A stretch of DNA of 60,937 nt, from the IMG/VR virus record IMGVR_UViG_3300045988_087795, one strand, 5' to 3'. This DNA is from a virus. The notes under the pieces were generated by a model. That model saw only the letters and a list, made by a program, of their open reading frames with translations, had not been told where the DNA came from and ran no database searches. The translations under genes and the position numbers were made by a program. Below are positions 5,457-42,317 of this stretch, in pieces; the stretch's first letter is position 1, and each line of letters opens with the position of its first letter.

Positions 5457-5774
5457 ATGATAGGCGATCATTTGAAGCTGGTCGAGAACGTACCGGAAGG
5501 AGCGGCCTTCTGCTTTGACGGAAAGACCAAGAAGCAGAAAATCGACCAGAACGACATAATCCGGGAGCTTTTCGACCTGGGCATGGGCGGCAGCTATTAT
5601 GCCCAGGTGGTGAAGGTGCCGGGAGAGTACCCGGCGGAAGACCTTTCAGCGGTTCTGCTGTACGAGCCGGAGGAGACGGCGAAAATCTTCGCACAGTTGT
5701 GCGGCTACACGCTTTTGGACCAAAACGGCCGAGTGATTACAGGCCGAATGCCTGGACGGGAGGAACAGAAATGA
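5457..5774 (+). CDS. Hypothetical protein, translationally coupled to the ADP-ribosylglycohydrolase gene
   Basis: RBS aaggagg and ATG 5457. Its stop overlaps the next start (ATGA). Confidence 0.55.
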   Translation: MIGDHLKLVENVPEGAAFCFDGKTKKQKIDQNDIIRELFDLGMGGSYYAQVVKVPGEYPAEDLSAVLLYEPEETAKIFAQLCGYTLLDQNGRVITGRMPGREEQK

Positions 5775-6739
5775 AGAAGATCAACGAAAAGCAACTTGAC
5801 CGAATCCGTGGTGCCTTGTACGGCGTGGCCGTTGGCGACGCCCTGGGCGGCCCCCTGGAATTTATGAGTGACCAGCAGATCCGCGACGCATACGGTCGCG
5901 TTACCGACATGATCGGCGGCGGATGGCTGAACTTGAAGCCCGGCGAGGTTACGGACGATACACAGATGACCCTTTGCGTTGCCCGCGGCATCCTGGATGC
6001 CCTGGAAGGGGACAACGGCCTGGACCTGGTAGCCTCCGTCGGCCAGCAGTTCATTGCATGGGCTGACAGCAAACCGAAGGACATCGGCGGCGCCTGCTCG
6101 CACAGCATTGCCATTGCAAAGGGACTGGGCCGCATTCGCTGGCAGGGCGTTCCGACGGCTGCGGACTGGATGGAGGCCGCGCGACAGACCAGGCGCGACG
6201 GCGGCCGCCCTGTGGAAGGCAACGGCGCTCTGATGCGCACCGTATACCCTGGCCTTTACTGCAAGACAAAGGGCGCTGCGGAGATGCAGGCCAGGGCGTT
6301 TGCAGAAATGACGCACTGCGGGGACAAGTCCACCGAGGCTTGCGTTTTGTACACGAGAATGGTATATTTATTAACGGAATCGGTTGGTAACTTCCAGGAC
6401 GGCGACGTGGCGGACTTTCTGCACGAGTGCTTGAAGGGGACGTGTTACGACGGCTCCGTGGAAGCGGCTGCGACGTATGCAGCGGGCGGCTATGTGGTGG
6501 ACAGCATGAGCACTGCCGTGAGCTGCCTCGCACACGCCCAGACCTTCGAGGAGGCCGTCTGCGCGGCCGCAAACCTGGGTGGTGATACCGACACCAACGC
6601 AGCCATTACCGGCGGCCTGGCAGGCGCTTGGTTTGGCTTCTCGGCCATTCCGGCGCGCTGGGTGGACGCCCTGGCCCCTGGGCTGCGGCAAGATCTGGAC
6701 ATTCTGGCCGCAGCAGCAGAGAGCCACCGCAACAAGTAA
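5771..6739 (+). CDS. ADP-ribosylglycohydrolase family protein (ARH/DraG-like)
   Basis: N-terminal GALYGVAVGDALGGPLEF, TDDTQM, and C-terminal GGDTDTNAAITGGLAGAWFG metal-site motifs. Confidence 0.85.
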   Translation: MKKINEKQLDRIRGALYGVAVGDALGGPLEFMSDQQIRDAYGRVTDMIGGGWLNLKPGEVTDDTQMTLCVARGILDALEGDNGLDLVASVGQQFIAWADSKPKDIGGACSHSIAIAKGLGRIRWQGVPTAADWMEAARQTRRDGGRPVEGNGALMRTVYPGLYCKTKGAAEMQARAFAEMTHCGDKSTEACVLYTRMVYLLTESVGNFQDGDVADFLHECLKGTCYDGSVEAAATYAAGGYVVDSMSTAVSCLAHAQTFEEAVCAAANLGGDTDTNAAITGGLAGAWFGFSAIPARWVDALAPGLRQDLDILAAAAESHRNK

Positions 6740-7251: not shown

Positions 7252-8340
7252 TCACGGTTTCTTTTCCTCCGGGGAGGCCAGAGCTTCCAGGCGGTCCGCG
7301 ACGTTGTTTGTTCGATCCGGGTACAGGTGGGCGTAGGTGCCGAGCGTTGTCGAAATTTTTTCGTGCCCAAGGCGCTGCTGCACCAGAAGGGCGTCCGTGC
7401 CCATGTTGATAAGCAGGGAGGCATGGGAGTGCCGTATATCGTGCACTCGAATGACCTTCACGCCGGTGCGCTGGCAGCAGCGCTCCAACTGTTCCTTTAG
7501 CCAGTATTTGGTGCATTCAAACAGGCGTTCTTCCGGTTGGTATTCGTAGAGCTTGGCGGCGTATTCCCGAATGATTTCCAGCAAGAAATCCGGCACTGTA
7601 ATGAACCGCTTGGAACGGCGGGTTTTCGGGTCTGAAATGACGTCCTCGCCATTCAGGCGGGCGTAGGAGTGCCGCACAAAAATGCCCTTCCGTTCAAAAT
7701 CCACATCGGCCAGGGTGAGGGCCAGCAGTTCGCCTTCCCGCATACCGGTCCAAAACAAAATGTTGAACGCAGCGTATGCCGTAGGATCTGACATTCCGGC
7801 AATGAACTTCTGAAATTCTTCCAGCGTCCAGAACTGCATTTCTTCGGCGCTACTTTTGCCCATGGACCCGGCCAGGGAAACGGGGTTTTCTTTCAGGCCG
7901 TAATATTTCCCGGCGAACCGAAACAGGGCGCTCATTTGGTTGTTGATGGTTTTCAGGTAGGTGGCAGAATACGGCTTTCCGTTCTTGTCCCTGGCGTCGA
8001 TCAGGTGATTTTGCCAAGCGCGAATTGACGAAACCGATACTTCATCCACAAGCTGATCCTTGAAGTAGGGGAGGATCTTCGTTTCAAAGATCCATTGCTT
8101 CATTTCGTAGGTGGTGGGCCGGAGCCTGGTCTTTGCATCTGCCATGTAGAGCTCCACCAGGGAACCGAATTTCATTTTTGTGGTGAGTGAGCTTTTCGCC
8201 AGGTATTCGCGCTCGTAAGCCAGGGCATCCGCCCGGCGAGCAAAGCAGCTTTTCTTTATTTGCTTCCGCTTACCGGTCCAGTCCGTAACGCGGAAGATGC
8301 AATACCATTCGCCGGTTTTCTGGTTTTTATATGCAGGCAT
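7252..8340 (-). CDS. int: Tyrosine recombinase / phage integrase with an N-terminal arm-binding domain
   Basis: C-terminal VHDIRHSHASLLI...LGHEKISTTLGTYAHLY (R, HxxR and Y). N-terminal AYKNQKTGEWYCIFRV. Start chosen at MPAYKN, with ggagg 7 nt upstream. Confidence 0.9.
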   Translation of the reverse strand: MPAYKNQKTGEWYCIFRVTDWTGKRKQIKKSCFARRADALAYEREYLAKSSLTTKMKFGSLVELYMADAKTRLRPTTYEMKQWIFETKILPYFKDQLVDEVSVSSIRAWQNHLIDARDKNGKPYSATYLKTINNQMSALFRFAGKYYGLKENPVSLAGSMGKSSAEEMQFWTLEEFQKFIAGMSDPTAYAAFNILFWTGMREGELLALTLADVDFERKGIFVRHSYARLNGEDVISDPKTRRSKRFITVPDFLLEIIREYAAKLYEYQPEERLFECTKYWLKEQLERCCQRTGVKVIRVHDIRHSHASLLINMGTDALLVQQRLGHEKISTTLGTYAHLYPDRTNNVADRLEALASPEEKKP

Positions 8341-8392
8341 GAGACCCCTCCATTTGCTGCTTTTCAACAGCTTTCCACAAAGTTTTCAACAA

Positions 8393-29103: not shown

Positions 29104-30723
29104 GTGGAAACCGACAGCCTGAAACCGAACCCCCGGAACCCGAACAGGCACCCGGAGGCACAAGTGAAGATGCTGGCCCACATAATTGCGGAACAGGGGT
29201 GGCGAGCCCCTATCACCGTGAGCAGGCGCAGCGGCTACATTGTACGCGGCCACGCCCGGCGCCTTGCAGGCTACGAGGCGGGCAGCCAGTATGCCCCCAT
29301 TGAGTGGCAGGACTACGACAACGACAGCGCCGAAATGGCGGACCTTGTCGCAGACAACCGAATCGCCGAGCTTGCTGTCCTGGACCAGGACGCCATAGCT
29401 GGGATTCTGGCCGAGCTGAAAGAGAACACCGACGACCTGGACCCGGAGCTGTCCGGCTTTACGGCGGAACAGATTGAGGACATGATCGCGGAAAACAAGA
29501 CCGACAGGGAAGCCGAGGAGCAGGCCGCGCGCCTGACCCTGGGCGAAAGATTCCTCATTCCGCCCTTTACTGTCCTGGATTCCAGAGGCGGCGTATGGGC
29601 TGAAAGAAAGAAGGCCTGGAAGCGCCTCGGTATCCGTTCCGAGGTTGGCCGCGGTGCTGACGACGACAACACGAAGGCGGGCTTGACTTATAACATAAGC
29701 AGCCAGCCGCCGGGTGCCTACAAGGCCAAGAACGCCTATGAAGAAAAAATCGGGCAGAAAATAAGCTGGGAGGAGTTCGCAGAGCTTTTCCCGGATGCCA
29801 TGGCGTACAGCGCCACTTCGATTTTTGACCCGGTTTTGTGTGAGCTGGCTTACCGCTGGTTTTGCCCGCAGGGCGGCACGATCATTGACCCCTTTGCAGG
29901 CGGCAGCGTCCGCGGCGTGGTGGCGGCTCTTACCGGCCGGAAATACACCGGCTGCGATTTAAGCAGCCGCCAGATTGAGGCCAACGTGAACAACTGGGAA
30001 GAAATCTCCCACATTAGCGTCCTGGACGATGCACCCGAGGTGACACCGCCCACATGGATAAACGGCGACAGTTCCCACATTGACGAGCTGGCGCCGGGAG
30101 AATATGACCTCTTTTTCACTTGCCCACCCTATGCAGATCTTGAAGTGTACAGCGACAAGCCCGAGGACCTTTCAAACAAGGATTACCCCGAGTTCTTGCA
30201 GCTTTACCGCAACGTGATCCGCCGGGCAACCGCTATGCTGAAACCTGACAGCTTTGCCGTTATTGTGGTGAGCGACCTTCGGGATAAGAAGGGCTTTTAC
30301 CGCAATTTCGTTTCTGACACCATCGACGCCTTCCAGGACGTCGGCCTGAAATTTTACAACGAAGCGATTCTGGTAAATACGGCCGGAGGCCTGGCAATTC
30401 GCGCGGGAAAGCAGTTTGAGCACAGCCGGAAAATGGGCAAAGACCACCAGAACGTCCTTGTGTTCTGCAACGGAGATCCTGCCCAAAGCGCAGCCTTTCG
30501 CACGGAAGACCCGCAGGAATACGCAGAGGACATAAACAGCTATCTGAAAGCCGGAGCGGGCAAACTTGGCGTGAACCACGAAAAAGTTCTGGTTTTCGCC
30601 AAGGGCGACCCGGAGAAAGCCGCGGAGACCATCGGAACGCCGGAAACCGTAGAGGAGGCCGACCGGTACGACAACACGGCGCTATTAAAAGAAATTCTCG
30701 GAGAAGACACCGGGGACGAATAA
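29104..30723 (+). CDS. ParB-like nuclease domain fused to a DNA methyltransferase (N6-adenine / N4-cytosine class). Coordinates are the as-assembled ORF from GTG; the true start is probably ATG 29021.
   Basis: LKPNPRNPNRHP...GHARRLA (ParB N-domain). DPFAGGSVRG (AdoMet site). FFTCPPYADLEVY (xPPY catalytic motif). Confidence 0.8.
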   Translation: METDSLKPNPRNPNRHPEAQVKMLAHIIAEQGWRAPITVSRRSGYIVRGHARRLAGYEAGSQYAPIEWQDYDNDSAEMADLVADNRIAELAVLDQDAIAGILAELKENTDDLDPELSGFTAEQIEDMIAENKTDREAEEQAARLTLGERFLIPPFTVLDSRGGVWAERKKAWKRLGIRSEVGRGADDDNTKAGLTYNISSQPPGAYKAKNAYEEKIGQKISWEEFAELFPDAMAYSATSIFDPVLCELAYRWFCPQGGTIIDPFAGGSVRGVVAALTGRKYTGCDLSSRQIEANVNNWEEISHISVLDDAPEVTPPTWINGDSSHIDELAPGEYDLFFTCPPYADLEVYSDKPEDLSNKDYPEFLQLYRNVIRRATAMLKPDSFAVIVVSDLRDKKGFYRNFVSDTIDAFQDVGLKFYNEAILVNTAGGLAIRAGKQFEHSRKMGKDHQNVLVFCNGDPAQSAAFRTEDPQEYAEDINSYLKAGAGKLGVNHEKVLVFAKGDPEKAAETIGTPETVEEADRYDNTALLKEILGEDTGDE

Positions 30724-30783: not shown

Positions 30784-31371
30784 GTGGCACACACAGGGCA
30801 GCGCGACCCGTGGGAACGCCTGCCAGGAGAGACCGCGCGGCAGTATGAGTGCTTCTGCGCTTACCGTGATATGCGATACTTGGAGAAGCCGAAGAAGCCC
30901 GGCGGCATTGTTCGGCCGGACTTTACCATCCGCCGCAGCATTCGCGGCCTAGCCGAGCAGATGGGCGTTACCCGCAAGAGCCTGGAACCCATGAGCGCAA
31001 AGTTTGACTGGGTCGCCAGGGCAGAGGAGTACGACAGTTATATCCTGGATTGTGTAGCAGCCCAAAACACGGCCCAGATCGTGAAGATGCACGAGAAGCA
31101 CGCGGCCATTGCGGAACAGATGCTGCGTAAGGCCACCAGCCGTCTGCTGACCATCCCGGACACCGATATAGACGCAAACGCCGTTGTTCGCATGGTGGAT
31201 ATAGGCGTAAAGGTGGAGCGGCTGAGCCGAGGAGAGCCCACGGAAAACCGCACCGTGACCCATGGCGGCGCGCTGGAAGTAGAAAACACGCAGCGCGCGG
31301 ACCTTTCCGCCCTTTCCGACGAGGAGCTAAACCAGCTTGCCGGACTACTGGAAAAATCTAGCCCAGGTTGA
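30784..31371 (+). CDS. Terminase small subunit (putative)
   Basis: GTG start after aggaaggagg. ETARQYECFCAYRDM...RSIRGLAEQMGVTRKSL is HTH-like. Immediately upstream of TerL. Confidence 0.6.
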   Translation: MAHTGQRDPWERLPGETARQYECFCAYRDMRYLEKPKKPGGIVRPDFTIRRSIRGLAEQMGVTRKSLEPMSAKFDWVARAEEYDSYILDCVAAQNTAQIVKMHEKHAAIAEQMLRKATSRLLTIPDTDIDANAVVRMVDIGVKVERLSRGEPTENRTVTHGGALEVENTQRADLSALSDEELNQLAGLLEKSSPG

Positions 31372-32827
31372 CCCTGCGGCGCTTCTCCGACAGGTCCGCC
31401 GGGAGCAGGCGGAACGGAACCTCCCCGAGTTCATCCGCCAGGCCTGGTCCGTAATTGAGCCCGGCACGACGTTCATCGACAACTGGCACATAGATTGCAT
31501 CGGCGAGTACCTGGAAGCGGTAAACCGCGGCCAGATCACCCGCCTGATCGTAAATATGCCACCTCGCCACATGAAATCCCTGGAAATAACCGTGTGCTAT
31601 CCGGCCTGGACGTGGGTAAAGCACCCGGAACGGCGATTCATAAAAGTTTCGTATTCCGACAGCCTGAGCCGCAAGCACAACGTTTTGACCCGTGACATTA
31701 TACAATCCCCATGGTATGCAGCCAACTGGGGAGACCGATTCAGCCTAAAAGACGACGTGAACCGGCAAAACGAGTTTAAGAACAACCACCAAGGCCTTAT
31801 GTTTTCGACCTCTGTCGGCGGCGCGCTGACCGGTGAAGGTGGCGACTGCATCATACTGGACGACCCGCAGAACCCATTACAGGCCAACAGCGAAACCGAG
31901 AGAGAAGCAACCATAGCCTTCTTCAAGAACACCTTGCAATCCCGTTTGAACGACCCGAAGACGGGCGTTTTTATTATTGTGATGCAGCGCCTTCACGAAA
32001 AGGACCTGACCGGCCATATTTTGGCCGAGGACCTGGGCTATACACACCTTTGCCTCCCGGCGGAGGCGCCGCAGCGCACAATAATCACCTTCCCGGTGAG
32101 CGGCCGCGAGGTGATCCGCGAGGAAGGCGACATCCTGAACCCGCAGCGTTTCGACAAAGAAACCCTGGCGAGCCTTAAAAAGTCCATGGGCTCCTTGCAA
32201 TATGCGGGCCAGTACGAACAGACCCCCGCCCCGGCGGACGGCCTGATCTTTAAGCGCGAATGGCTGCAAAACTTCTTCGACCCCAAAGCAGCGCCCCACC
32301 AAAGTATGCTTATCCAGTCCTGGGATATGGCTTTCACAAAGAGCGAAGGCAGCGCCAAGGTTGCGGGCTACATTGTGGGCCGGAGTGGTGCAGACGTTTA
32401 CATTTGGGACCTGGTAAACGAAAAAATGACCTTTACCGAGAGCGTGGCGGCCGTGCGCACCCTGACGGGCAAATGGCCGAAAGCCAGGGCGAAGGTTATA
32501 GAGAACAAGGCCAACGGTCCCGCAATCGTTGACCTGTTGAAAAAAAAAATTCCCGGCATGGTAGAGTTCAACCCAAAGGGCAGCAAGCAAGAACGTGCCC
32601 TTTCCGTTACGCCCTACTTTGAAGCCGGGAATATTCATTTCCCAAAGCCGGAAACGGCGCCCTGGGTGCACGACACCATCCAGGATCTTTTGATGTTTCC
32701 CAAGGGCGAATACAAGGACGATATAGACGCACTTGTGCAGGCTATCTTGTACTTGATGGACAAGCCCGCAAAGAGCCCGCCAAAGGCAGAAGCGATGCTT
32801 TCCAAGAGCAGCTATTGGCGGAGATAA
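31337..32827 (+). CDS. terL: Terminase large subunit
   Basis: NMPPRHMKS (Walker A-like), CIILDDPQNP (Walker B), and a C-terminal nuclease-like region. The TTG start is uncertain. Confidence 0.85.
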   Translation: MPDYWKNLAQVDPAALLRQVRREQAERNLPEFIRQAWSVIEPGTTFIDNWHIDCIGEYLEAVNRGQITRLIVNMPPRHMKSLEITVCYPAWTWVKHPERRFIKVSYSDSLSRKHNVLTRDIIQSPWYAANWGDRFSLKDDVNRQNEFKNNHQGLMFSTSVGGALTGEGGDCIILDDPQNPLQANSETEREATIAFFKNTLQSRLNDPKTGVFIIVMQRLHEKDLTGHILAEDLGYTHLCLPAEAPQRTIITFPVSGREVIREEGDILNPQRFDKETLASLKKSMGSLQYAGQYEQTPAPADGLIFKREWLQNFFDPKAAPHQSMLIQSWDMAFTKSEGSAKVAGYIVGRSGADVYIWDLVNEKMTFTESVAAVRTLTGKWPKARAKVIENKANGPAIVDLLKKKIPGMVEFNPKGSKQERALSVTPYFEAGNIHFPKPETAPWVHDTIQDLLMFPKGEYKDDIDALVQAILYLMDKPAKSPPKAEAMLSKSSYWRR

Positions 32828-32845: not shown

Positions 32846-34255
32846 GTGACAACCCGAAAAGGAGAAGTCGGCCGCATAGGCCAGAAACGCTATGGCGGCG
32901 TCTTCTATGAAGAATTTTTGCCGGAGCTGCGCGGCCGCCGAGGCATGGCGGCTTACAGTGAAATGGCAGCAAATGACGACCTTGTGGGCGCCATTCTGTA
33001 CGCAATAAAAATGCTGATCCGGCAAGTAGACTGGAACGTGGCGCCCGGCGGTGCTTCCGAGAAGGACCAGGAGGCCGCAGATTTCGTTCTGGAATGTATG
33101 GCCGATATGCAAGACACCTGGACGGACACGATCAGCGAAATCTTGTCCTTCCTGACTTTCGGCTGGTCTGCCCACGAGATCGTGTATAAGCGCCGGTGCG
33201 GCAGCAGCCGGGACCCGCGCCTGAACAGCAAGTACGACGACAGCCTGGTGGGCTGGATGAAACTTCCTATCCGCTCCCAAGAAAGCCTCTACCAATGGGA
33301 GTACGACGAGAACGACAACCTTGTCGCACTGACCCAGATGCCCCCGCCGAATTTTGAGCTTATCACGATTCCGGCGGAAAAGCTGCTTTTCTTCCGCACG
33401 GAGAGCAGCAAGGGCAACCCGGAGGGGCGCAGCATTCTGCGCAACGCTTACCGCTCCTGGTATTTCAAGCGCAGAATCCAGGAAATTGAAGGCATCGGCA
33501 TTGAACGCGACCTTGCGGGCTTTCCTGTGCTTACCGCGCCGGAAGGCACGGACATTTGGGACCAGAACGACCCGGAAATGGTCGCAATCCTGAACAATGC
33601 CCAGGCCATCGTCCAGAACATCCGCCGGGACCACCTGGAAGGCCTGGTGCTTCCGTCCGGCTGGAAGCTGGAACTTTTAAGCAGCGGCGGCGACCGGCAG
33701 TTTGACACGAACAAGGTTATTGACCGCTACGACACCCGAATCGCCATGACAGTTATGGCGGATTTTGTTCTGCTGGGCCACCAGCAGACCGGCTCCTTTG
33801 CGTTGAGCGACAACAAAACGCATATTTTTTCTATGGCAATCGAAGCTTTCCTGGACGTGATCTGCGAGCAGTTCAACAACAAGGCGATTCCCGATCTTAT
33901 GAAAATGAACGGTGAGCACTTCGCGGGTCTTACTGACTACCCGCACCTTACCCACGGCGACGTGGAGGACGTGGACCTGGACAAGCTGGGCAACTACTTG
34001 AAGAACGTCACGACCTCCGGCCTCCTGGTGCCCGACGAGGGCGTGGAAGACTACATCCGGGAAGCCGCCGGGCTGCCGAAGCGGCTTGACGACTATGTGC
34101 CGATGCCGGGCGAGGACCGGGAGCCGGGCAAGGTGAGAACCACCCAGAAGCCGAAGAAAGACACCGGCGACAAGATGGGCGGCCTTGACGACGAGGAGCC
34201 GGAAGAAGACCCGGAGGCGGTAGAAAAGGCGAGAAAGGACCTGGGGAGGGACTAA
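32846..34255 (+). CDS. Portal protein
   Basis: Position between TerL and MuF. YSEMAANDDLVGAILYAIKMLI is typical of Mu-gp29/DUF935-like portals. Confidence 0.75.
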   Translation: MTTRKGEVGRIGQKRYGGVFYEEFLPELRGRRGMAAYSEMAANDDLVGAILYAIKMLIRQVDWNVAPGGASEKDQEAADFVLECMADMQDTWTDTISEILSFLTFGWSAHEIVYKRRCGSSRDPRLNSKYDDSLVGWMKLPIRSQESLYQWEYDENDNLVALTQMPPPNFELITIPAEKLLFFRTESSKGNPEGRSILRNAYRSWYFKRRIQEIEGIGIERDLAGFPVLTAPEGTDIWDQNDPEMVAILNNAQAIVQNIRRDHLEGLVLPSGWKLELLSSGGDRQFDTNKVIDRYDTRIAMTVMADFVLLGHQQTGSFALSDNKTHIFSMAIEAFLDVICEQFNNKAIPDLMKMNGEHFAGLTDYPHLTHGDVEDVDLDKLGNYLKNVTTSGLLVPDEGVEDYIREAAGLPKRLDDYVPMPGEDREPGKVRTTQKPKKDTGDKMGGLDDEEPEEDPEAVEKARKDLGRD

Positions 34256-34256
34256 A

Positions 34257-37200
34257 ATGTTTAGTATTCGCAAGGCGCGGGCGCCGACGCCCCACGACTT
34301 CGTGGCAAAATCCAAGCCCAAGAAGTCGAAAGCAGGGAAAGACGCCCTTAAAAAGCTGAACGACTACCTGAACTCGGCTTCCAGTGAGCCGATGTACTTC
34401 CTTCACAACTTTTGGAAGGCCCAGAGCAACGCCATCACCTACAAAGAACTTCGTGAAGCCATTATGAACGGCTACCTTGACGAAGCGACCCTCCAAGCGT
34501 GGCAGCAAGATTACTCCCTCTTTGTGAAAAGCCACCTTGAACCCATCTGGCAGCAGGCAGCCAAAGCCGGAGCCGATGCCCTGGCGGCGTCGGCTTCCGG
34601 CGGATGGGTTTTTGACCCCATGAGCGACGCCATGACGGCCTGGATCAAAGACCACGGCGCCGAGTGGGTAACGAAAATAAACGATGAAACCCGGGATGCC
34701 ATGCGCGCCATGATCGAGGCCAGCACAAAGGGCCAGTTCACGGTGGACGAGCTTTCCCGGGCGATCCGGCCGCTTATCGGCCTGACAGAGCCCCAGGCGG
34801 CCGCAAACCTGAAATATTACGCCAGCGTTAAGAAAAGCCTCCTTGACAACGGCGTGAAAGCGGATGCGGCCACCAAGAAGGCCAGGGAGCAGGCCTATAA
34901 GTACGCCGATAAACAGCTCCGGCAGAGAGCCTATACCATTGCCATCACCGAGAACGCCGCAGCGTACTGCGCCGGGTATCGTGAGGGCGCGGCCCAAGCC
35001 CAGGCGCAAGGCTACCTTGGGAAGGGTGTGTATGTTTTTGCGACCGCCGACGATGAAGACGTCTGCCCGGTGTGCAGCGCCCTGAACGGCACCGAAACCG
35101 ACGCCGAGGGAAGTTACCACATCGGCACAACAAAAATGGCCTTCAAGATGGGCCCACACCCGCCGGTGCATCCGCGCTGCCGGTGCGCCGAATACTTCGA
35201 GGAGAAGGAACCGCCCGTCTTTCTGCCCCAGCAGCCCGCACAGGACGTTATCCAGCCATGGCCGGGTAATTTGCCAGACCCGAGCGAAAGGGCAGAGGAC
35301 GAAGGCAAGGCCTTTGTGGCGGGCAGCTTGAAAGTGCCGGATGGCATGACCTCAAACGGCCCCGTCCACCTGGGCAACACTGGCAAGATGTACGATTACA
35401 CCGACGCCAACGGCTGGGAGTGGTATTTTAAGCCTGCCCAGAGCAAGGGCGGGCAGTATGAGCCGTTCCGGGCCTATGCGCAGGAGGCGGGCTACAAGGT
35501 GCAGTCCATCGTGGACCCGGACACGGCCGTCCCGGTGGGCGTTGGCACTATTGACGGAAAGTTTGGAGCTTTCCAGGAGAAGGTAAAGACCTCCGCCGGA
35601 GGAATCGACCTTGAAGCCTGGCAGCTTGGCGCGGCTTCCGACCTTCCGCCGGAGGTGACGGCGCAGATCCAGCGCGAGCACGTCACGGACTGGCTTCTGG
35701 GCAACTTCGATGCCCACGGCGAAAACTTCCTGACAGACCAGGAGGGCCGAATCGTTGGCATTGACAAAGAGCAGGCCTTCCGCTACATGGGCGACGCCAA
35801 AAGCCATGTAATGAGCTACACATACCACCCGAACAGCGCATACGGCGAAACGGAGCCGGTCTACAACACCCTTTTCCGCCGGTTTGCGGAGGAAGATATA
35901 GATCTGAGCCTCCAAGACACTTTGCCGTATATAAAGCGGGTTGAGAGCATCCCAGATAAAGAATACCGCGAGATCTTCCGCCCCTATGCCGAGGCCCTAC
36001 ACGGCCAAGGAAAAGAGGCGGAAAAGCTGCTGGACGAGATCGTGGAGCGCAAAAGCACCCTCCGCGAAACTTACCGCACGTTTTACGAAAGCCTTCTGAC
36101 GGAACGCACCGGCACGAAGGCTTCTTTTGTTTGGGCGGACGAGGCCGCGGCCGTTGCGAAGCAGCCCCTTGCGGCCGTGCAGATCACCCCGCAGGCGGCT
36201 AAAGGCATGACCGTCCAAGACCTGAAACAGATTGCAAAGAGCCAGGGCGTTGCCTACTACAGCAAAATGAGCAAGGCCCAGCTGGTGCAGGCTGTGACGG
36301 ACCCCGTGAAAGCCGCAGAGCTTTCCCGGGAGGTAAAGGCAAAGGCCGCCGCAAATGCAGCCGCCAGAAAGGCAAAAGCCCAGTACACAGCCCCGCAGGC
36401 AACAATCCCGAAGGGCGTTAAGGGTGCCGGAGAAATCTTCTCCGACCTGTCCAAGGTGCCCACCACACAGGAAGGAATCCCCATTGCTTCCGACCGCGGC
36501 AGCGTGGAGGGCCTTGTCCTTCGCGCCCGGCGGATGAACATTGACGGCGCCGAGGTCTACGAGGTGAGCGGAAAGCTGACGCAAGGTACCTGGGCGCGGG
36601 CGTTGAAAACAATCAAGCCCAGCAGTGCAACCGAAGCGCTGGAATTTGAGGAAGCCTCCAAGACGAGCGCCTTTTTCAGTTCCAGCGGTTTGAGCCTTGG
36701 AGTAAACACGAAGTGCAGGGCTGTCCACGATGGCGAAAAGACCTTGCAGATCTACACCCACGAGGGCGGCGAATATTACTCTTGGCAGGGCTTTTTTCGG
36801 GCCCGTGTTCCGGTGACGGCAGACGGCGGCTTTGATGCCCGGGAAATGAAAAAACTGTTGAAGACGGCAGGCCTTGACGACCTGACGGAAACGCCGACAG
36901 TGGAGGCCGAAAAACGCCTTATAAAGTCCCGCCTTGTCTGGCAGAACGCCCCTTCCCGCGCCCCAGAGTATGAAAATCTGACCAGCGACGCCCTGGACAA
37001 GAAGCTGGACGAGATCCTAAAAGACCTGGGCATTGACCAGAAGCGGGTGGACGGCGTGGAGCTGCGCAAGGTATGCGACGGTTACGCCGTCTATTACGAC
37101 CCGGCGCAGGCCAAAGCCTTAAAGGCTGCGGGTGCGGATTACGTTTGGTGCGGCGTTGGAAGCGCTGACAGCGTTGTTTCTATCATTCAGAGCGGAGGCC

Positions 37201-37685
37201 TTCGCAGCACAAACCGGCGCTGCCTTTCCGGCATCAGGCTGACCGGCGCAAGCCCAAGCCAGGATATGCGCACCGGCGGCGCAGATAATGTTTTCACCAG
37301 AATTGGAGTGAAGAATGTTCACGGGAAAGTGCGATATGATAAATCTTTCTGTGGCAGCGGCTATCGCCTTATTATTGACGAAGCGGAGCTGGGCCGCACA
37401 GACTGGTACGCATATACCGGGGATAACTTCGGAACGACCCAGCCGAGCACCTTCCACAGCCGCCAAGGCTCCGAGGAGTTCGTGAGAGGACAAAAAGAGG
37501 GTTATTACCAGTCCGGCAATGAAATCATGTTCCGCCAGGGCATCCCGGCCACGTCCATACAAAAGATTCGCTGCCCGGGCGAGCGTGAGCGCGGCAGGCT
37601 GCTGCAAGCGTTCCGCAATGCGGGAATAACGGAAGTGAACGGAGTGCCCATTGAGGATTTTGTGGAGGTTGGCGATCTGCTATGA
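34257..37685 (+). CDS. Giant MuF / SPP1-gp7-type minor head protein fused to additional domains (polyvalent / polymorphic-toxin-like virion protein)
   Basis: MuF core ITENAAAYCAGY...VCPVCSALNG...HPRCRC lies in the first ~320 aa. It is followed by ~820 aa including a kinase-like DxHxxN...ID loop, a Rho_N/SAP-like motif and a distinct C-terminal domain. Confidence 0.8.
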   Translation: MFSIRKARAPTPHDFVAKSKPKKSKAGKDALKKLNDYLNSASSEPMYFLHNFWKAQSNAITYKELREAIMNGYLDEATLQAWQQDYSLFVKSHLEPIWQQAAKAGADALAASASGGWVFDPMSDAMTAWIKDHGAEWVTKINDETRDAMRAMIEASTKGQFTVDELSRAIRPLIGLTEPQAAANLKYYASVKKSLLDNGVKADAATKKAREQAYKYADKQLRQRAYTIAITENAAAYCAGYREGAAQAQAQGYLGKGVYVFATADDEDVCPVCSALNGTETDAEGSYHIGTTKMAFKMGPHPPVHPRCRCAEYFEEKEPPVFLPQQPAQDVIQPWPGNLPDPSERAEDEGKAFVAGSLKVPDGMTSNGPVHLGNTGKMYDYTDANGWEWYFKPAQSKGGQYEPFRAYAQEAGYKVQSIVDPDTAVPVGVGTIDGKFGAFQEKVKTSAGGIDLEAWQLGAASDLPPEVTAQIQREHVTDWLLGNFDAHGENFLTDQEGRIVGIDKEQAFRYMGDAKSHVMSYTYHPNSAYGETEPVYNTLFRRFAEEDIDLSLQDTLPYIKRVESIPDKEYREIFRPYAEALHGQGKEAEKLLDEIVERKSTLRETYRTFYESLLTERTGTKASFVWADEAAAVAKQPLAAVQITPQAAKGMTVQDLKQIAKSQGVAYYSKMSKAQLVQAVTDPVKAAELSREVKAKAAANAAARKAKAQYTAPQATIPKGVKGAGEIFSDLSKVPTTQEGIPIASDRGSVEGLVLRARRMNIDGAEVYEVSGKLTQGTWARALKTIKPSSATEALEFEEASKTSAFFSSSGLSLGVNTKCRAVHDGEKTLQIYTHEGGEYYSWQGFFRARVPVTADGGFDAREMKKLLKTAGLDDLTETPTVEAEKRLIKSRLVWQNAPSRAPEYENLTSDALDKKLDEILKDLGIDQKRVDGVELRKVCDGYAVYYDPAQAKALKAAGADYVWCGVGSADSVVSIIQSGGLRSTNRRCLSGIRLTGASPSQDMRTGGADNVFTRIGVKNVHGKVRYDKSFCGSGYRLIIDEAELGRTDWYAYTGDNFGTTQPSTFHSRQGSEEFVRGQKEGYYQSGNEIMFRQGIPATSIQKIRCPGERERGRLLQAFRNAGITEVNGVPIEDFVEVGDLL

Positions 37686-38050
37686 ATAGACGGCTTGTTT
37701 ACACCATCAAGCGCCCGGGCGACAAGAAGCCCACCGGCCTTGCCCTGAACTGCCACCTTTGGCACGGGGCCTTCCGCTACTTCGACATGGAGCACGGCCA
37801 CGAGATCCCCGGCAAGGTGACGGAGGACGGAGAGGACGCCTTCACGTTTACTTCGGAGGGCTACGCGCCCGGAGCCTGGCGGTTTGAAAAGCTGACCATT
37901 GAGCGCTTCCGGCGCGAAACATACAAAATCGTGGAAGGCGGCAACTACATTGCCCAGGTGATCCGCAGCACGGTGGACCTTCACGAATGGTATCGCAAGA
38001 GGTATGGCGAGGCCGCCGGGCTTTGCTATCCCCGCATAAATTCCGAATAG
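37682..38050 (+). CDS. Small protein coupled to the MuF fusion (candidate immunity protein)
   Basis: ATGA overlap with the MuF stop. 122 aa. Inserted between MuF and the head protease gene. Confidence 0.5.
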   Translation: MNRRLVYTIKRPGDKKPTGLALNCHLWHGAFRYFDMEHGHEIPGKVTEDGEDAFTFTSEGYAPGAWRFEKLTIERFRRETYKIVEGGNYIAQVIRSTVDLHEWYRKRYGEAAGLCYPRINSE

Positions 38051-38154: not shown

Positions 38155-38631
38155 ATGGTTACTTTTAACGAAGCACTCACCGGCAAGAAGCCACCCGGCA
38201 AAGAGCCGAACGGCCGCATTGCTGGCACCTTCAAGATCCAGAAATCCGTTGACGAAAAGCGCCTGGCCTTTGGCTGGGCCAGCGTGGCAGCCACGGCCGC
38301 GGGCGATACCGTGACGGACTACTACGAGGACATCATCGAGCCCGACGAGCTGGAACAGGCTGCCTATAACTTTGCACAGTTCTACCGCGAGGGCGGCGAA
38401 ATGCACGAGCGCGGCGGCTGTGCCGTCCTGGTGGAGAGCGTAATTTTCACCAAGGAAAAAATGGCCGCTATGGGCATCCCGGAGGGCGTTGTCCCGGAAG
38501 GCTGGTGGATCGGCTTTAAGGTGACGGACGATGAGGTTTGGGAGAAGGTCAAAGACGGCACCTATCCCATGTTTTCCATTGAGGGCGAGGCCGTCCGCGA
38601 GGAAGTGGACGACGAGGAGCCCGAGAACTAA
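38155..38631 (+). CDS. XkdF-like putative head protease
   Basis: aaggag RBS. Pattern DYYEDIIEPDELEQAAYNF...GEMHERGG..LVESVIF. Confidence 0.65.
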   Translation: MVTFNEALTGKKPPGKEPNGRIAGTFKIQKSVDEKRLAFGWASVAATAAGDTVTDYYEDIIEPDELEQAAYNFAQFYREGGEMHERGGCAVLVESVIFTKEKMAAMGIPEGVVPEGWWIGFKVTDDEVWEKVKDGTYPMFSIEGEAVREEVDDEEPEN

Positions 38632-38646
38632 ATACCGATAAACCAA

Positions 38647-38677
38647 AGCCTCGGCACCCGCCGGGGCTTTGTTGTTT
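38647..38677 (+). terminator. Internal (probably partial) terminator
   Basis: agcctcgg-cacccg-ccggggct followed by ttgttgttt. Confidence 0.5.
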
Positions 38678-38710
38678 ATAAAAAATCTTCAAAGAAAGGA
38701 GGAAACGCAA

Positions 38711-39988
38711 ATGGCCACCAAACTTAAAAACCTGAAAATCAAGAAAGTGGACTTCGTGGACAACGGCGCGAACCCTGGCGCGAGTATTGCCCTGTACAAG
38801 AGCAAGCCTGCGGAAGGGGAAACGCCTGCTGTGCAGCCCAAGGAGGACACCCCGCCCGAGGAATCTATTTTGAAGCGGATTGTTCACGCCATTGCCAAGA
38901 GTATCGGCGCCACCGATGCGCAGGCAGCTGCGGCCGTTGAGGAAGTTTCCAAGAACACGGACGTCCCCACCTTTGGCGACGCTATGGCCCGCCGCCGGAT
39001 GCGCCAGACCACGGAAGAAATCTGGGATTACTGTTACGCCCTGAATGACAGCCTGTGCGGCATTGTGGCAAATGCCGACATTACAGCCGAGGACAAAAAG
39101 GCCCTCATGGCCCAGAGCTGCGCAGAGTTCGCAGCGGCGACCGAAGCGGCAATCCCGAAATGGTCCGGCGGTATTCCCGTGAAGTTGGAAAAGGCAGCCC
39201 CCGCGCCTCTGACACCCGACAGAATCGAGAACGCCAAAGCAGCCCGCGCCCGTCTGGACGAGATGATCTCCAAGGCGGAGCCGAAGCCCACGACCGAAGA
39301 TACACCGCCGGAGCCCCCGAAAGAGGGCACCGACCCGACGCCTCCCGCTGAACCGCAGCAGGAGGAAGAACCCGTGCAGAAAGGAGCATTTGACATGGAA
39401 ATCGACAAGAGCAAGCTGTCCCCCGAGGAAGTGGCGCAGCTGGAAGCAATCGAGAAGAAGGCCGGTATTCCGGCCCAGGCAGCGCCCGCCACGCCCGCAG
39501 GCGTTGAGAAGTCCGCCCCTGCCACCCCCGCAGATAACACCGCGGGCGGCGAGGAGGATATTTACAAGGGCATCCATCCCGAAGTGGCAAAGGAGATCGC
39601 AGAGCTGCGCAAGTTCCGCCAGGATGCGGAAAACCGCGAGCTGCTGACCGTTGCCAAGAAGTACGAGCTTCTGGGCAAGAAGCCCGAGGAGCTTGTCCCC
39701 GTGCTGAAATCCCTGAAAGACGCAGGCGGCACCGCCTACAACGACATGATCGGCGTCCTGGACGCAAACCTGGAAGCTGTGCAGAAGTCCGGCGCATTTT
39801 CCGAGATTGGCAAGCGCGGCGGCGACCACAGCCACGCCACGACCGGCGCAGACGACGCATGGAGCCAGATCGAGAAGCGGGCCGAAGAGATCCGCAAGTC
39901 TGCCCCCACCATGGGCTATTACGAGGCCATCGACCAGGCTTGCCAGCAGAACCCCGAGCTTGTCCATGAGTACGAGAACGACCGCTAA
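38711..39988 (+). CDS. Scaffolding protein (putative)
   Basis: aaggagg RBS. N-terminal KIKKVDFVDNGANPGASIALYK, then an acidic, Pro/Ala-rich and coiled middle. Upstream of the capsid gene. Confidence 0.6.
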   Translation: MATKLKNLKIKKVDFVDNGANPGASIALYKSKPAEGETPAVQPKEDTPPEESILKRIVHAIAKSIGATDAQAAAAVEEVSKNTDVPTFGDAMARRRMRQTTEEIWDYCYALNDSLCGIVANADITAEDKKALMAQSCAEFAAATEAAIPKWSGGIPVKLEKAAPAPLTPDRIENAKAARARLDEMISKAEPKPTTEDTPPEPPKEGTDPTPPAEPQQEEEPVQKGAFDMEIDKSKLSPEEVAQLEAIEKKAGIPAQAAPATPAGVEKSAPATPADNTAGGEEDIYKGIHPEVAKEIAELRKFRQDAENRELLTVAKKYELLGKKPEELVPVLKSLKDAGGTAYNDMIGVLDANLEAVQKSGAFSEIGKRGGDHSHATTGADDAWSQIEKRAEEIRKSAPTMGYYEAIDQACQQNPELVHEYENDR

Positions 39989-40006
39989 AGAGAGGAGGAA
40001 AAGAAT

Positions 40007-40405
40007 ATGAGCATGATCGGTACTGCAACCAATTCCAGCCCGTACCTGGCCGCGCCTGCTGCTGCGACCATCGAGAACGGCAAGAATCACTTCGTCACCC
40101 TGGGCGAGAACGGCGTTTCCCTGGCTACCGAGGGCGCCGCCGCTGCGGGCATCCTGCTGCCTGACACCGAGGACAAGGTGGCGGCAGGCGAGAGCGTGAC
40201 CGTGCAGATCAAGGACCGCACCCTGGTCCAGGTTGGCGCGGCCGTTACTGCTGGCGACCCGCTGGCAAGTGACGCCAACGGCTGCGCCGTGAAGGCTGCG
40301 GCGGAAAAGTTCATCGTTGGCTATGCCATGGAGAGCGCGACCGCCGCGGACCAGATTATCCACATCCAGATCACCAAGAGCGGCTTTGTGCCGAAGGCGG
40401 GCTAA
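40007..40405 (+). CDS. DUF2190-like head decoration protein
   Basis: Gly/Ala-rich beta-type sequence, AAGESVTVQI...VTAGDPLASDANG. Position just before the capsid gene. Confidence 0.55.
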   Translation: MSMIGTATNSSPYLAAPAAATIENGKNHFVTLGENGVSLATEGAAAAGILLPDTEDKVAAGESVTVQIKDRTLVQVGAAVTAGDPLASDANGCAVKAAAEKFIVGYAMESATAADQIIHIQITKSGFVPKAG

Positions 40406-40423
40406 AGGAAGGAGAGATAAACA

Positions 40424-41452
40424 ATGAGCAACACCAAAAACACCACCGCTGGCATTGCGGCCGAGATCGCAAAAGGCTGGCAGCCCAACAACTACCTGAC
40501 CAATATGTCCATGGCTTACTTCCAGAAGCCGGAGGACTATGTGGCACACAGCATTTTCCCGGTCTGCCCGGTGCAGCTGTCCGCTTCCTACTACTACACG
40601 TTCAGCAAGGAAGATCTGGCCCGTGACAACGTACAGCCCAAGCCCGCCTTCGGCAAGGTTGACCCCGCTGTGATGGGCCAGGACGACAACACCTACAAGT
40701 GCCACGTTGACCAGATCATCCTTGGCATTGACCAGATCGCCGCCCTGAACTACCAGCGCAGCCGTGCCCCCGGCGTGAACGACCCCCGCCGCGCCAAGGT
40801 CCGCACCGCCACTGAACAGATGCTTCTCCACCAGGACATTCTTTTCGCAAAGAACTTTTTCCATGCTGGCGTCTGGGCAAACGAGCTGACCGGCACCACC
40901 AACGGCAGCGGCTCTAAGGAGTTCGTGAAGTTCAACGACACTTCTTTTGACCCCATCGGCTTCTTCGACGACCTGCGCACCGAGATCAAGCGCCAGGGCC
41001 GCCGTACCCCGAACCGCCTGGCGCTGGGCATCCAGGCTTACAACGCCCTGAAAAACAACCCCTTCGTCAAGGAGAGCGTGAAGTACACCGGCACCACCGC
41101 GAACCCCGCCATCGTTACGCCCAACGTGCTGGCGCAGCTTTTCGGCGTTGAGCAGGTGAAGGTCCTGGAATCTACCTACAACTCCGCAGGCCTGGGCCAG
41201 AAGGAGAGCATGGAGTTCATTTGCGACCCCAAGGCTGCACTTCTGTGCTACGCCACCCCGACCCCGCAGATCGACGAGCCTTCCGCAGGCTACATTTTCA
41301 CCTGGGATATGCTGGGCAACGGCGCTTCTGTCGCCTTTGACCAGTACGAGGGTGAAAACGGCACCCATGCGGAGTTTATCGAAGGCCTGTGCGCTTCCGA
41401 CATGAAGAAGACTTCTGACGACCTGGCAATCTTCCTGAAAGAGTGCGTCTAA
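40424..41452 (+). CDS. Major capsid protein (lambda gpE-like family)
   Basis: Size, position and strong RBS. N-terminal YFQKPEDYVAHSIFPVCPV pattern. Confidence 0.75.
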   Translation: MSNTKNTTAGIAAEIAKGWQPNNYLTNMSMAYFQKPEDYVAHSIFPVCPVQLSASYYYTFSKEDLARDNVQPKPAFGKVDPAVMGQDDNTYKCHVDQIILGIDQIAALNYQRSRAPGVNDPRRAKVRTATEQMLLHQDILFAKNFFHAGVWANELTGTTNGSGSKEFVKFNDTSFDPIGFFDDLRTEIKRQGRRTPNRLALGIQAYNALKNNPFVKESVKYTGTTANPAIVTPNVLAQLFGVEQVKVLESTYNSAGLGQKESMEFICDPKAALLCYATPTPQIDEPSAGYIFTWDMLGNGASVAFDQYEGENGTHAEFIEGLCASDMKKTSDDLAIFLKECV

Positions 41453-41462
41453 GGAGGCTGCC

Positions 41463-41891
41463 ATGAAGTACACCTGTCTGAAAATGGCGACCTTTGGCGG
41501 CGTGAAGTACCGCCCGGGCGACGTTGTGGAGGCTGAAATGATCCAGCCCGGCCGCGCAAGGGCAATGCAGGACATGGGCATTATTGCCGAGTGCCAGGAG
41601 CTCGAAGTGGGCAAAGTTGAAGCGCTGACCCTCCCCATCACTGCGGAGGGCGGCGTGGTAGAGCTTGACGCCACCCCGGACGCCGTTGTCCAGGCTGTGT
41701 GCATTTTGCAGCAGCGGGCCGAGGACGCCGTGGCGACCATTTCCGAGGTTGAGGACCAGAGCGTCCTTATCCTGGTGAACGCCTGCGACAGCCGCAAGAG
41801 CGTCAAGGCGGCCGCCAAGGAACGCGGCGTATTCCTGGAAGACGAGGCCGCGCAGGAGGCTCCGGAGGGCGGCTCCGAGGGGGTGAGCTGA
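41463..41891 (+). CDS. Hypothetical head-associated protein
   Basis: Operon position. Confidence 0.5.
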   Translation: MKYTCLKMATFGGVKYRPGDVVEAEMIQPGRARAMQDMGIIAECQELEVGKVEALTLPITAEGGVVELDATPDAVVQAVCILQQRAEDAVATISEVEDQSVLILVNACDSRKSVKAAAKERGVFLEDEAAQEAPEGGSEGVS

Positions 41892-42317
41892 TTGGCACAG
41901 CTCACATACACCTACGATGCGGGCAAAATCGCTGAACACGGCCTTGACCAGATGCGTTTCGAGCTGGGGGACACGATGGTGGAGGGCGGCGTGGAAACCT
42001 GTGCGTTGAGCGACCAGGAATATAAAGCCGTCATTGAAGCCTATCCCCACTGGAAGCGCGCAAAGCTGGCCTGCGTGGAAAGCATCCTGCGCCGCTTTTC
42101 CTATGAGGTGGACACCAAAGTCGGCGAGCTGAATCTTTCGTTGAGCGACCGCCTGGACTACTGGAAGAAGCTCTATTCTGACTTAAAGGCAGATGTGAAC
42201 GCTTCCGCCCCGGTAGCAAACCCGGCAGCCATCGGCGGCCAGCATTATTTCTATGCTGGTATGATGGAAAACCACGGGACCGGCGGCAGAGGAGGCGGCG
42301 GCCATGCATTACCTTAG
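41892..42317 (+). CDS. Head-tail connector-like protein (TTG start)
   Basis: Position. Starts immediately after the upstream stop. Confidence 0.45.
   Translation: MAQLTYTYDAGKIAEHGLDQMRFELGDTMVEGGVETCALSDQEYKAVIEAYPHWKRAKLACVESILRRFSYEVDTKVGELNLSLSDRLDYWKKLYSDLKADVNASAPVANPAAIGGQHYFYAGMMENHGTGGRGGGGHALP

Follow-up and report, generated by a model that had tools for sequence, protein, structure and literature searches.

We analyzed a viral DNA of 60,937 nucleotides (nt) from the IMG/VR collection (record IMGVR_UViG_3300045988_087795; this whole stretch is called the window below), and in particular a gene at 34257..37685 on the plus strand (stop codon included) that encodes a protein of 1142 amino acids (aa). 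The protein joins an N-terminal MuF head-morphogenesis core to a C-terminal extension of about 820-830 aa past aa 312, in which we found a predicted protein-kinase-like domain, a Rho_N motif and a conserved tail module whose model resembles ADP-ribosyltransferases (ARTs). A 122-aa open reading frame (ORF) begins inside the stop codon of the fusion gene. We think it probable that this MuF fusion protein is a two-enzyme effector, packaged in the virion and co-ejected with the DNA, for which the 122-aa ORF supplies a translationally coupled immunity protein.

The segments of the fusion gene, and the two genes that may be connected with it, are listed here with the basis of each assignment in brackets.

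34308..35192 (+), MuF / SPP1-gp7-type head-morphogenesis core, aa 18-312 (PHROG, Pfam)
35193..35303 (+), Pro/Gln-rich linker, aa 313-349 (composition; predicted local distance difference test score, pLDDT, <50 in the first 19 residues of the kinase-segment model)
35304..36164 (+), predicted protein-kinase-like domain, aa ~350-636 (AlphaFold2 (AF2) model, Foldseek, conserved residues)
36201..36299 (+), Rho_N / SAP / HeH-type helix-extended-helix motif, aa 649-681 (Pfam PF07498)
36300..36422 (+), Ala/Lys-rich linker, aa 682-722 (composition; poorly conserved in the alignment)
36423..37058 (+), predicted beta-rich domain, aa 723-856, and helical connector, aa 857-934 (modelled with the C-terminal half)
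37059..37682 (+), predicted ADP-ribosyltransferase-fold domain, alpha/beta, aa 935-1142 (Foldseek, conservation)
37682..38050 (+), 122-aa ORF, candidate immunity or neutralising protein (ATGA overlap, linkage)
5699..6739 (+), ADP-ribosylglycohydrolase (ARH) (Pfam PF03747, E 2e-60; PHROG_6572)

An intact MuF fusion gene

The ORF runs from ATG to TGA with zero internal stops, as a preliminary description of this DNA, made from the letters alone, had read it. Its start lies 2 nt past the stop of the portal gene and is preceded by GGGAGG. The gene is real, because every segment of the 1142-aa protein has homologues, the identical protein occurs on 4 contigs in the public collection, and many more contigs, independent, from different sources and up to 155 kb long, encode forms of 1141 or 1142 aa. 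Full-length ORFs of 1135-1167 aa were also found in dozens of diverged viral and genomic loci. The 90%-identity cluster that contains the protein has 6,891 members, portal proteins among them, and its size does not equal the abundance of the MuF fusion.

The preliminary description had named an assembly chimera, or a missed stop or frameshift that splits the ORF, as what would undo the assignment; a relative in which the gene is split at the kinase/Rho_N junction (L005) speaks for an artefact in which two or more real genes are fused, but this split is accounted for by a 10-nt deletion, and the identical protein and its 1141/1142-aa variants on independent contigs, together with the 1135-1167-aa ORFs in diverged loci, rule the artefact out and leave it a negligible probability. 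The deletion in L005 (GCAGCCCCTT) is located just upstream of Met651 (L005 3640-3810 compared with window 36120-36290) and leaves two ORFs that overlap by ATGA, one of 647 aa for MuF and kinase and one of 491 aa for Rho_N and module; this may be a genuine split of the gene or a mistake of assembly. A second variant, P0228 (875 aa, a cluster member of P0001), has lost the kinase domain in frame. Its junction, ...FKPAQSKG/IAYYGK..., falls between the similar peptides AQSKG and AKSKG, which points to short repeats that recombined or were collapsed in assembly. Both are variants, with no sign of error in the window, and they demonstrate that the parts of the protein are separable.

The protein is almost certainly a MuF head protein. 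Over aa 18-312 it matched phrog_28652 (E 3e-51) and phrog_2468, 'head morphogenesis' (E 3e-27), and over aa 198-311 it matched Pfam Phage_Mu_F (PF04233) with 31.3 bits against a cut-off of 29.6 (E 3.7e-7). The NCBIfam model TIGR01641 (phageSPP1_gp7) scored 22.3 bits, below its cut-off of 39.65, though in the right region. The motif HPRCRC occupies aa 305-310, and the end of the MuF core, which had been placed near this motif at about aa 305, agrees with the Pfam and PHROG boundaries. The gene is positioned directly downstream of the portal gene in the head module.

The Rho_N motif was recognized by Pfam PF07498 at aa 649-679 (E 2.9e-6, 27.6 bits against a cut-off of 24.9), while the HeH and SAP models of Pfam stayed below threshold at this segment. 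The peptide MTVQDL starts at aa 651, that is nt 36207, exactly where the preliminary description had put the start of a Rho_N/SAP-like motif. Rho_N was found in 10 of the 48 relatives scanned.

Predicted kinase and ADP-ribosyltransferase-like domains

The kinase-like segment that the preliminary description had named after the MuF core lies at aa ~350-636 and very probably adopts a kinase fold, judging from its model. An AF2 model based on a 16-sequence alignment had a pLDDT of 86.8 and a predicted template modelling score (pTM) of 0.85. A Foldseek search with this model against the Protein Data Bank (PDB) gave 520 matches at E<=1e-3, and all 50 among the matches listed were kinases, RIPK2, Stk1/PknB, RIO2 and PI3K-gamma included. 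The best template modelling (TM) score among the matches listed was that of Helicobacter pylori CtkA (3akl; 0.45-0.47 on the query and 0.51-0.53 on the target). Residues K392 (in FKP), D485 and N490 (in NFDxHxxNF) and D503 (in GIDKEQ) are invariant in 16 homologues down to ~25-35% identity, and the Gly-rich loop LGxTG, which reads LGNTG here, is conserved. The full kinase catalytic set is present, with roles assigned by motif pattern, and this suggests that the domain is probably an active kinase. At the sequence level, Pfam PI3_PI4_kinase (PF00454) remained sub-threshold (14.8-17.2 bits against 27.1) and covered only the catalytic loop, aa 468-516, and a kinase profile gave zero kinase matches among the PDB sequences.

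The preliminary description had divided the rest of the protein into an unassigned middle region and a distinct C-terminal domain. The tail is indeed free of annotation, but it does not consist of two separate parts: aa 723-1142 form one conserved unit of ~420 aa, which a whole-length profile matches contiguously in relatives. The N-terminal half of this tail module always accompanies the C-terminal half in full-length relatives, and the AF2 model of aa 723-1142 was compact, with a pLDDT of 84.8 and a pTM of 0.83. For the N-terminal half, Foldseek found zero confident structural matches in the PDB or in BFVD.

With the whole module, the seven best PDB matches in Foldseek were all DarT1 or DarT2 (7yk3, 7omv and 8baq among them), from M. 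tuberculosis, Thermus and E. coli, with probabilities of 0.99-1.0, E values of 2e-3 to 1e-2 and TM-scores on the target of 0.44-0.59. Yeast Tpt1 came after DarT in the list, followed by OspC3 and by cholera toxin / heat-labile toxin. In BFVD, 12 matches had E<=1e-3 (1.5e-5 to 1e-3); they include a DUF3626 protein, baculovirus ORF32 and iridovirus IIV6 422L, the family of the last two being unchecked, as well as several phage minor-capsid or uncharacterised proteins. DUF3626 is reportedly mentioned in the paper on SopF, which we take to be an ART. An 'ORF28' family of baculo-, asco- and iridoviruses is related to DarT (PMC9503650). These matches suggest that the tail module has an ART fold, which we regard as likely, and in the model its nearest neighbours are on the DarT/Tpt1 side of the ART superfamily. 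The AlphaFold and Foldseek analysis that had been proposed as a check yielded a kinase fold for aa ~350-636 and ART-like best matches for aa 723-1142.

We place the ART match in aa 935-1142 because this domain has ~210 aa, as does that of DarT, because the C-terminal half stands alone in some short proteins, because it has an ART-typical strand-helix pattern, '(V/L)Wx G…S(I/V)xxxGG', 'GGADxVFTR' and 'NE(I/V)MF', and because the invariant residues lie there. Conservation in this domain was determined over 148 representatives, down to ~25-35% overall identity. G1007, R1047, D1056, G1059 and E1089 (the last in the 'NE(I/V)MF' strand) were conserved at 1.0, R988, S999, D1003 and D1049 at 0.99, R1015 at 0.97, N1088 at 0.96 and F1013 at 0.94. 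This pattern has the character of an active-site signature as far as the alignment can tell. Its order recalls DarT2, in which H13, R51, Y71 and E160 would correspond, in spacing only, to a variable position, R988, F1013 and E1089. In DarT2, the Glu shares its catalytic role with an Arg of the NAD+-binding loop (PMC9967889; PMC11543638). We lean slightly towards the view that the modelled domain is an active NAD+-dependent transferase.

Two candidate assignments were rejected. A canonical R-S-E ART at the C-terminus was ruled out, with R988 and S999 11 residues apart and zero ExE motif. A word-indexed search had returned 17 proteins and made the module appear to be a rare family, which was overturned by an exhaustive HMMER scan that found 2,234 representatives at E<=1e-3, 486 of them at E<=1e-30. 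Sequence membership in DarT was also searched for, with zero match to Pfam DUF4433/DarT, to the PADLOC DarT models or to the DarT sequences of the PDB. The whole protein and the tail profile gave nothing among the PDB sequences, or chance bromodomain matches at E~0.8.

The combination of kinase and tail module recurs in relatives. Among the best 150 of the 2,234 module representatives, ~24 also match the kinase-like domain significantly, and in these the module always lies C-terminal to the kinase, in many cases with Rho_N in between. The cassette of kinase, sometimes Rho_N, and module is also present in ~2,000-aa proteins without a detected MuF. Pfam searches of 55 long module representatives detected MuF in 19, Rho_N in 11, an intein in 2, Phage_min_cap2 in 1 and NUDIX in 1, and no other domain. 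Simpler forms exist as well (P0012, P0013 and P0015), in which MuF, a linker and the module follow one another without kinase or Rho_N.

Divergent tail modules were also seen in contigs of the candidate phyla radiation (CPR; L021-L026, from Saccharibacteria, Azambacteria and Yanofskybacteria), and in P0124, P0103, P0168 and P0141 the module is N-terminal in helical-repeat proteins of ~900-1150 aa or C-terminal in repeat proteins of ~2000 aa. Because it is found in CPR genomes and in long repeat proteins, the tail module is not confined to phage heads. Zero homologue of the small downstream ORF was detected at the CPR loci.

The kinase-like domain was found in a second group of head proteins, mycobacterial prophage proteins annotated as 'minor capsid and ADP-ribosyltransferase fusion'. 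In the 1170-aa gp54 of prophiFSQJ01-1 (BK061312; L001 2660-6172), the domain spans aa 459-710 (E 8e-42) and is flanked by a VG15 head-protein domain and by a canonical ADPrib_exo_Tox ART (aa 984-1165). The annotation of gp54 is silent on the kinase domain. Two phage lineages follow one plan, a head anchor, the same kinase and a C-terminal ART, with ART types that differ. The shared plan therefore supports the reading of the module as an ART, and it also supports the idea that kinase and ART work as a functional pair.

Linked genes and genome context

The 122-aa ORF starts within the stop codon of the MuF fusion gene (CTATGAAT), in an ATGA overlap. In each of the non-CPR loci of genomes or metagenomes that are long enough to show it (17/17), a homologue with 25-56% identity comes directly after the module gene, including at loci whose modules are only 32-33% identical to that of the window. 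With a profile of the small ORF, 75 loci were found in IMG/VR, and in 62 of them the module lies immediately upstream, with a gap of 0-92 nt. A related phage, MT835491 (L004), shares the head module, and its MuF protein, only 319 aa long, has a core that is 45% identical; there the small ORF is absent and the protease gene directly follows MuF.

Orphan copies of the small ORF without the module occur in 12 IMG/VR loci (L040-L044, L046-L050, L053 and L075). The two that we inspected, L047 and L075, are in early or replication-type regions and adjoin a gene for a small winged-helix, 'replication initiation'-like protein, near a transposase gene in L047 and a recombinase/endonuclease-like gene in L075. 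This pattern is the same as that of orphan immunity genes in polymorphic-toxin systems, an analogy that would fit an immunity role. Searches with the ORF and its profile in Pfam, PHROGs, PADLOC and the PDB sequences gave zero matches, to macro or NADAR families or to any other, and no second copy was found within the window. We give about even chances to the 122-aa ORF being an immunity protein.

The window also encodes an ARH, between the lysis cassette (GH25, 2266-2895; DUF6908, 5027-5443) and the integrase gene, an interval that is a typical site for lysogenic-conversion genes. About 10 IMG/VR contigs carry both an ARH and the tail module, and two of these are diverged (ARH 49-52% and module 46% identical). 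More distant ARHs were found in phages without a detected module. The link of the ARH to the MuF fusion protein is suggestive; the gene may be one of enzymatic immunity or counter-defence, and its being a second immunity protein is a tentative, rather doubtful possibility. An obligatory linkage of ARH and module was considered and is unsupported, many near-complete module contigs having no detectable ARH.

The first and last 80 nt of the window (1-80 and 60858-60937) are an exact direct repeat. Because this repeat joins the ends, the window represents the whole genome of the phage (60,857 bp), in a circular or terminally redundant form. Its G+C content is 58%. The neighbours of the fusion gene and the other genes that place it are the following.

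7252..8367 (-), tyrosine integrase (phrog_1 integrase, E 5e-71)
30784-31371, small terminase
31337-32827, large terminase
32846..34255 (+), portal (phrog_113, E 6e-95)
38155-38631, S78-type protease
38669-39988, 439-aa protein
40007-40405, scaffold
40424-41452, major capsid protein
47130-50714, tape measure

The order is terminase, portal, MuF fusion gene, 122-aa ORF, S78-type protease, scaffold and major capsid protein, and in relatives the portal gene, the MuF gene and the protease, scaffold and major capsid genes keep their order. The phage is temperate by its gene content, because it encodes a tyrosine integrase. Tail-module relatives were found in assemblies of Oscillibacter, Flavonifractor, Dysosmobacter, other Oscillospiraceae and Clostridia, and Atopobiaceae. 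Some are on bacterial contigs of 370 kb and 1.68 Mb and are therefore prophages. A temperate siphovirus of Oscillospiraceae-type Clostridia is the best explanation of these data.

Several other features of the genome were observed. An antisense ORF of 1120 aa (38549..41911, minus strand) extends over the protease, scaffold and major capsid genes and is most likely a side effect of the codon bias that goes with a G+C-rich genome. With such an ORF, and with 58% G+C, the length of an ORF alone is weak evidence here. A fusion of a ParB-like N-terminal domain with an N6/N4 DNA methyltransferase (29104-30723, plus strand) is situated just upstream of the terminase genes, a position kept in the relatives L002 and L003. 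A diversity-generating retroelement comprises a reverse transcriptase gene (59435-60664), a template repeat (TR) at 59144-59269, a variable repeat (VR) at 316-441 and a target gene (104-1087) that holds VR and matches a 'Hoc-like head decoration' PHROG. The two repeats are 126 nt long and 87% identical, and all mismatches are at adenines of the copy adjoining the reverse transcriptase. The tape-measure gene contains 4 copies of a 114-nt (38-aa) period at 49766-50165 (plus strand), which are 66-78% identical to the reference copy.

Proposed mechanism and known systems

To our knowledge, only two MuF-fused toxins have been characterised, the (p)ppApp synthetase Apk2 and Bxa. Bxa is the MuF-ART of a Bacteroides (B. 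stercoris) prophage and is neutralised by a small binding protein, Bsi, and a hydrolase, BAH (PMC11699363). MuF has been described in fusion with injected effectors (PMC5512222; PMC9503650). Jamet et al. 2017 (PMC5576092) described MuF toxins by an N-terminal MuF with a C-terminal extension of 113 aa or more, their encoding by a temperate phage or prophage, and a small ORF (<150 aa) immediately downstream, the last seen in 89% of MuF toxins. The protein studied here has a MuF core followed by ~830 aa past aa 312, its phage has an integrase and relatives on the 370-kb and 1.68-Mb bacterial contigs, and the 122-aa ORF with its ATGA overlap comes immediately after it. By these criteria it is a member of the MuF polymorphic-toxin/polyvalent-protein class, a membership known here from sequence. 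The preliminary description had already proposed this class, as one of temperate Firmicute phages, and the integrase, the Clostridia prophage relatives and the small downstream ORF bear it out.

We propose the following mechanism, in which packaging and ejection, catalysis by both enzymes, their targets and the immunity roles of the small ORF and the hydrolase are what we infer. The MuF core (aa 18-312) would put a few copies of the protein into the procapsid beside the portal, as for SPP1 gp7, and flexible linkers would tether the kinase-like domain, the Rho_N/SAP motif and the ~420-aa module to it. The Rho_N/SAP motif probably holds the protein on the packaged DNA. At infection, the protein would exit the capsid with the DNA, as the MuF fusion and its precedents suggest, and both enzymes would modify host molecules before phage gene expression, with host takeover, counter-defence, or the killing or disabling of cells as the purpose. 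Late in the producing cell, the coupled 122-aa protein would keep the ART-like domain harmless in the role of an immunity protein that is not an enzyme, like Bsi for Bxa, and the ARH may serve as a second, enzymatic immunity, like BAH.

Some of our own results count against this proposal. The ART assignment is drawn from predicted structure only. The tail module gave zero PDB matches at E<=1e-3 in Foldseek, which also gave no query coordinates for the placement that we infer in aa 935-1142, and it had zero matches in Pfam (E<=10), NCBIfam, PADLOC or PDB sequences. A profile of diverse sequences of the ART domain yielded 18 unannotated matches and zero bridge to an annotated ART family. At the position of the His of the H-Y-E motif the residue is variable (C/S/A/G/N/H), and with only 11 residues between R988 and S999 the R...S...E spacing is unlike the canonical R-S-E. 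On the side of immunity, many near-complete contigs with the module have no detectable ARH, the ARH gene of the window is 27.5 kb from the MuF fusion gene, unlike the adjacent one in Bxa, and the 122-aa ORF, which has no recognisable fold or family, could be an assembly chaperone instead. Finally, a multidomain protein of 125 kDa would need unfolding to pass the tail channel.

One alternative is that the protein is not injected at all. It would be a fitness factor or interbacterial toxin released by lysis, from prophage induction in a subpopulation as has been proposed for Bxa, and would act, free or capsid-bound, on neighbouring bacteria or host cells. Bxa, itself a MuF fusion, was reported to be active on epithelial cells and antibacterial (PMC11699363), a role in competition was discussed by Jamet et al. 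(PMC5576092), and the temperate phage, its gut-type hosts and the pattern of small ORF and hydrolase resemble those of Bxa. However, a cytoplasmic-type kinase and an NAD+-dependent enzyme must enter a cell, and our Pfam scans detected zero translocation or receptor-binding domain. Co-ejection with DNA agrees better with the presence of a MuF anchor and of the Rho_N DNA-binding motif, and we consider release by lysis unlikely.

Another alternative concerns the target of the tail module, which would be a nucleic-acid ADP-ribosyltransferase, like DarT (bases of single-stranded DNA) or Tpt1 (phosphorylated ends), positioned on DNA by Rho_N so as to mark or damage the DNA or RNA of the host or of a competitor at the start of infection. 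The rank of DarT1/DarT2 and then Tpt1 among the PDB matches points this way, as do the BFVD matches to ORF32 and 422L in view of the DarT-related 'ORF28' family of PMC9503650, in which the membership of both is unchecked. The invariant Arg before the aromatic strand would resemble the catalytic R51 of DarT in spacing, and in many relatives the DNA-binding Rho_N is directly upstream of the module. On the other hand, the DarT models of Pfam and PADLOC do not match, no macrodomain or NADAR partner was found, and the TM-scores are moderate (0.45-0.59). The reversal enzyme of the genome is an ARH-type hydrolase, and in the Bxa study BAH was compared with the protein-acting ARH1 sub-family, which reverses N-linked ADP-ribose on protein (PMC11699363). 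The mycobacterial prophages, too, hold a canonical ADPrib_exo_Tox-type ART at the equivalent position. Overall, we consider a nucleic-acid target improbable.

A more elaborate form of this idea, which we hold to be quite unlikely, joins several of these elements: the module would be an undescribed, large ART clade (about 2,200 representative clusters), structurally nearest to DarT/Tpt1 and with a nucleic-acid target, and in phages of gut Clostridia it would be fired from the capsid with a dedicated atypical kinase while Rho_N tethers it to the incoming DNA. The kinase might, for instance, make or regulate what the transferase modifies. The 122-aa proteins would in that case form a novel family of ART inhibitors, whose orphan copies in other mobile elements would protect against superinfection.

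We consider it very unlikely that the extension lacks all catalytic activity and is made of degenerate kinase and ART scaffolds that play a structural part, for example as an internal protein of the head or of ejection, a DNA organiser or a spacer. In favour of this reading, the His of the ARTs varies here, none of the known ART motif sets is matched in full, the MuF of phage Mu has an inactive C-terminal domain (PMC5512222), and the kinase is deletable in the natural variant P0228. But charged residues at the expected catalytic positions of the ART-like domain are conserved at 94-100% in the 148 representatives, the kinase catalytic residues are conserved in the 16 homologues, and such conservation down to ~25-35% overall identity is typical of active enzymes. 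The tightly linked small ORF would also be hard to account for if the domain were inert.

In the literature that we searched, we found no description of the cassette of kinase, Rho_N, beta-rich domain and ART-like domain, of a MuF fusion with DarT as its best structural match, or of the ~420-aa module family and the 122-aa family linked to it. The kinase and ART-like parts escape Pfam, NCBIfam, PADLOC and PHROGs, which reach the MuF core and Rho_N, and both are large families; among the Oscillospiraceae phages assembled from human-gut-type metagenomes, the MuF fusion protein is common. The proposed two-enzyme effector thus offers a candidate new ART clade with a testable active site (R988 and E1089), a candidate inhibitor family in the 122-aa ORF, which is module-linked and has orphan copies elsewhere, and a naturally occurring case in which kinase and ART would be delivered as a pair. 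Should activity be confirmed, temperate gut phages would have a longer catalogue of virion-delivered effectors, and thousands of 'hypothetical' proteins would gain an annotation.

Among known systems, the protein shares with MuF toxins its N-terminal MuF, its position after the portal gene in the head module, a long enzymatic extension and the small ORF downstream, and with MuF toxins and Bxa a temperate, gut-associated phage that also encodes an ADP-ribosylhydrolase. Unlike MuF toxins with their one toxin domain, it has two predicted enzymes in series and Rho_N, and its ART-like module of ~420 aa is without a sequence match to ADPrib_exo_Tox or other Pfam ARTs and is most similar, in the model, to DarT. 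In the case of Bxa, both the hydrolase and the small immunity protein adjoin the toxin, whereas here the small ORF is adjacent and the ARH is 27.5 kb off.

Polyvalent proteins, as presented by Iyer et al. 2017 (PMC5512222), resemble the MuF fusion protein in combining several effector domains in one polypeptide that is predicted to be codelivered with DNA, and MuF, ART, kinase and Rho-N/SAP are all listed there as components. The kinases described there are a clade without the C-lobe from elements of Verrucomicrobia, Chlamydia and Bacteroidetes, whereas the kinase model here has a helical C-terminal region and CtkA as its best match, with Clostridia and Actinobacteria as hosts. In the passages that we read, we saw no recurrent cassette with the fixed order kinase, Rho_N, beta domain, ART-like domain.

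The two predicted enzymes each have a nearest known structure. DarT (7omv, 7omw, 7yk3 and 8baq) is the best structural match of the tail module, with a domain of ~210 aa, and the invariant Glu on the last catalytic strand and the invariant Arg in the preceding loop recall its E160 and R51. Unlike DarT, the module has no detectable sequence similarity to that family, no DarG macrodomain or NADAR partner and no conserved His of H-Y-E, and it is fused to a beta-rich accessory domain and a phage head protein; DarT is a host defence toxin, whereas the module is phage-borne. CtkA of H. pylori (JHP940, 3akl), which had the best TM-score among the kinase matches listed, is an atypical bacterial Ser/Thr kinase like the one predicted here, but the two have ~12-13% identity, zero sequence-level match and unrelated contexts.

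The mycobacterial fusions (McProf and prophiFSQJ01-1 gp54) are alike in their position after the portal gene, in their size (1170 aa), in the homologous kinase and in a C-terminal ART. They differ in a VG15-type N-terminus, which is not Pfam MuF, in the canonical R-S-E ADPrib_exo_Tox type of their ART, and in having no Rho_N, beta-rich accessory domain or homologue of the 122-aa ORF.

Phage T4 Alt is an ADP-ribosyltransferase of the R-S-E clade that is packaged in the head by a capsid-targeting sequence and injected, and the protein kinase gp0.7 of phage T7 is expressed early and not packaged. Both are separate proteins of lytic phages, and Alt is not targeted by MuF, but they are precedents for a phage ART and a phage kinase that act on host proteins at the start of infection.

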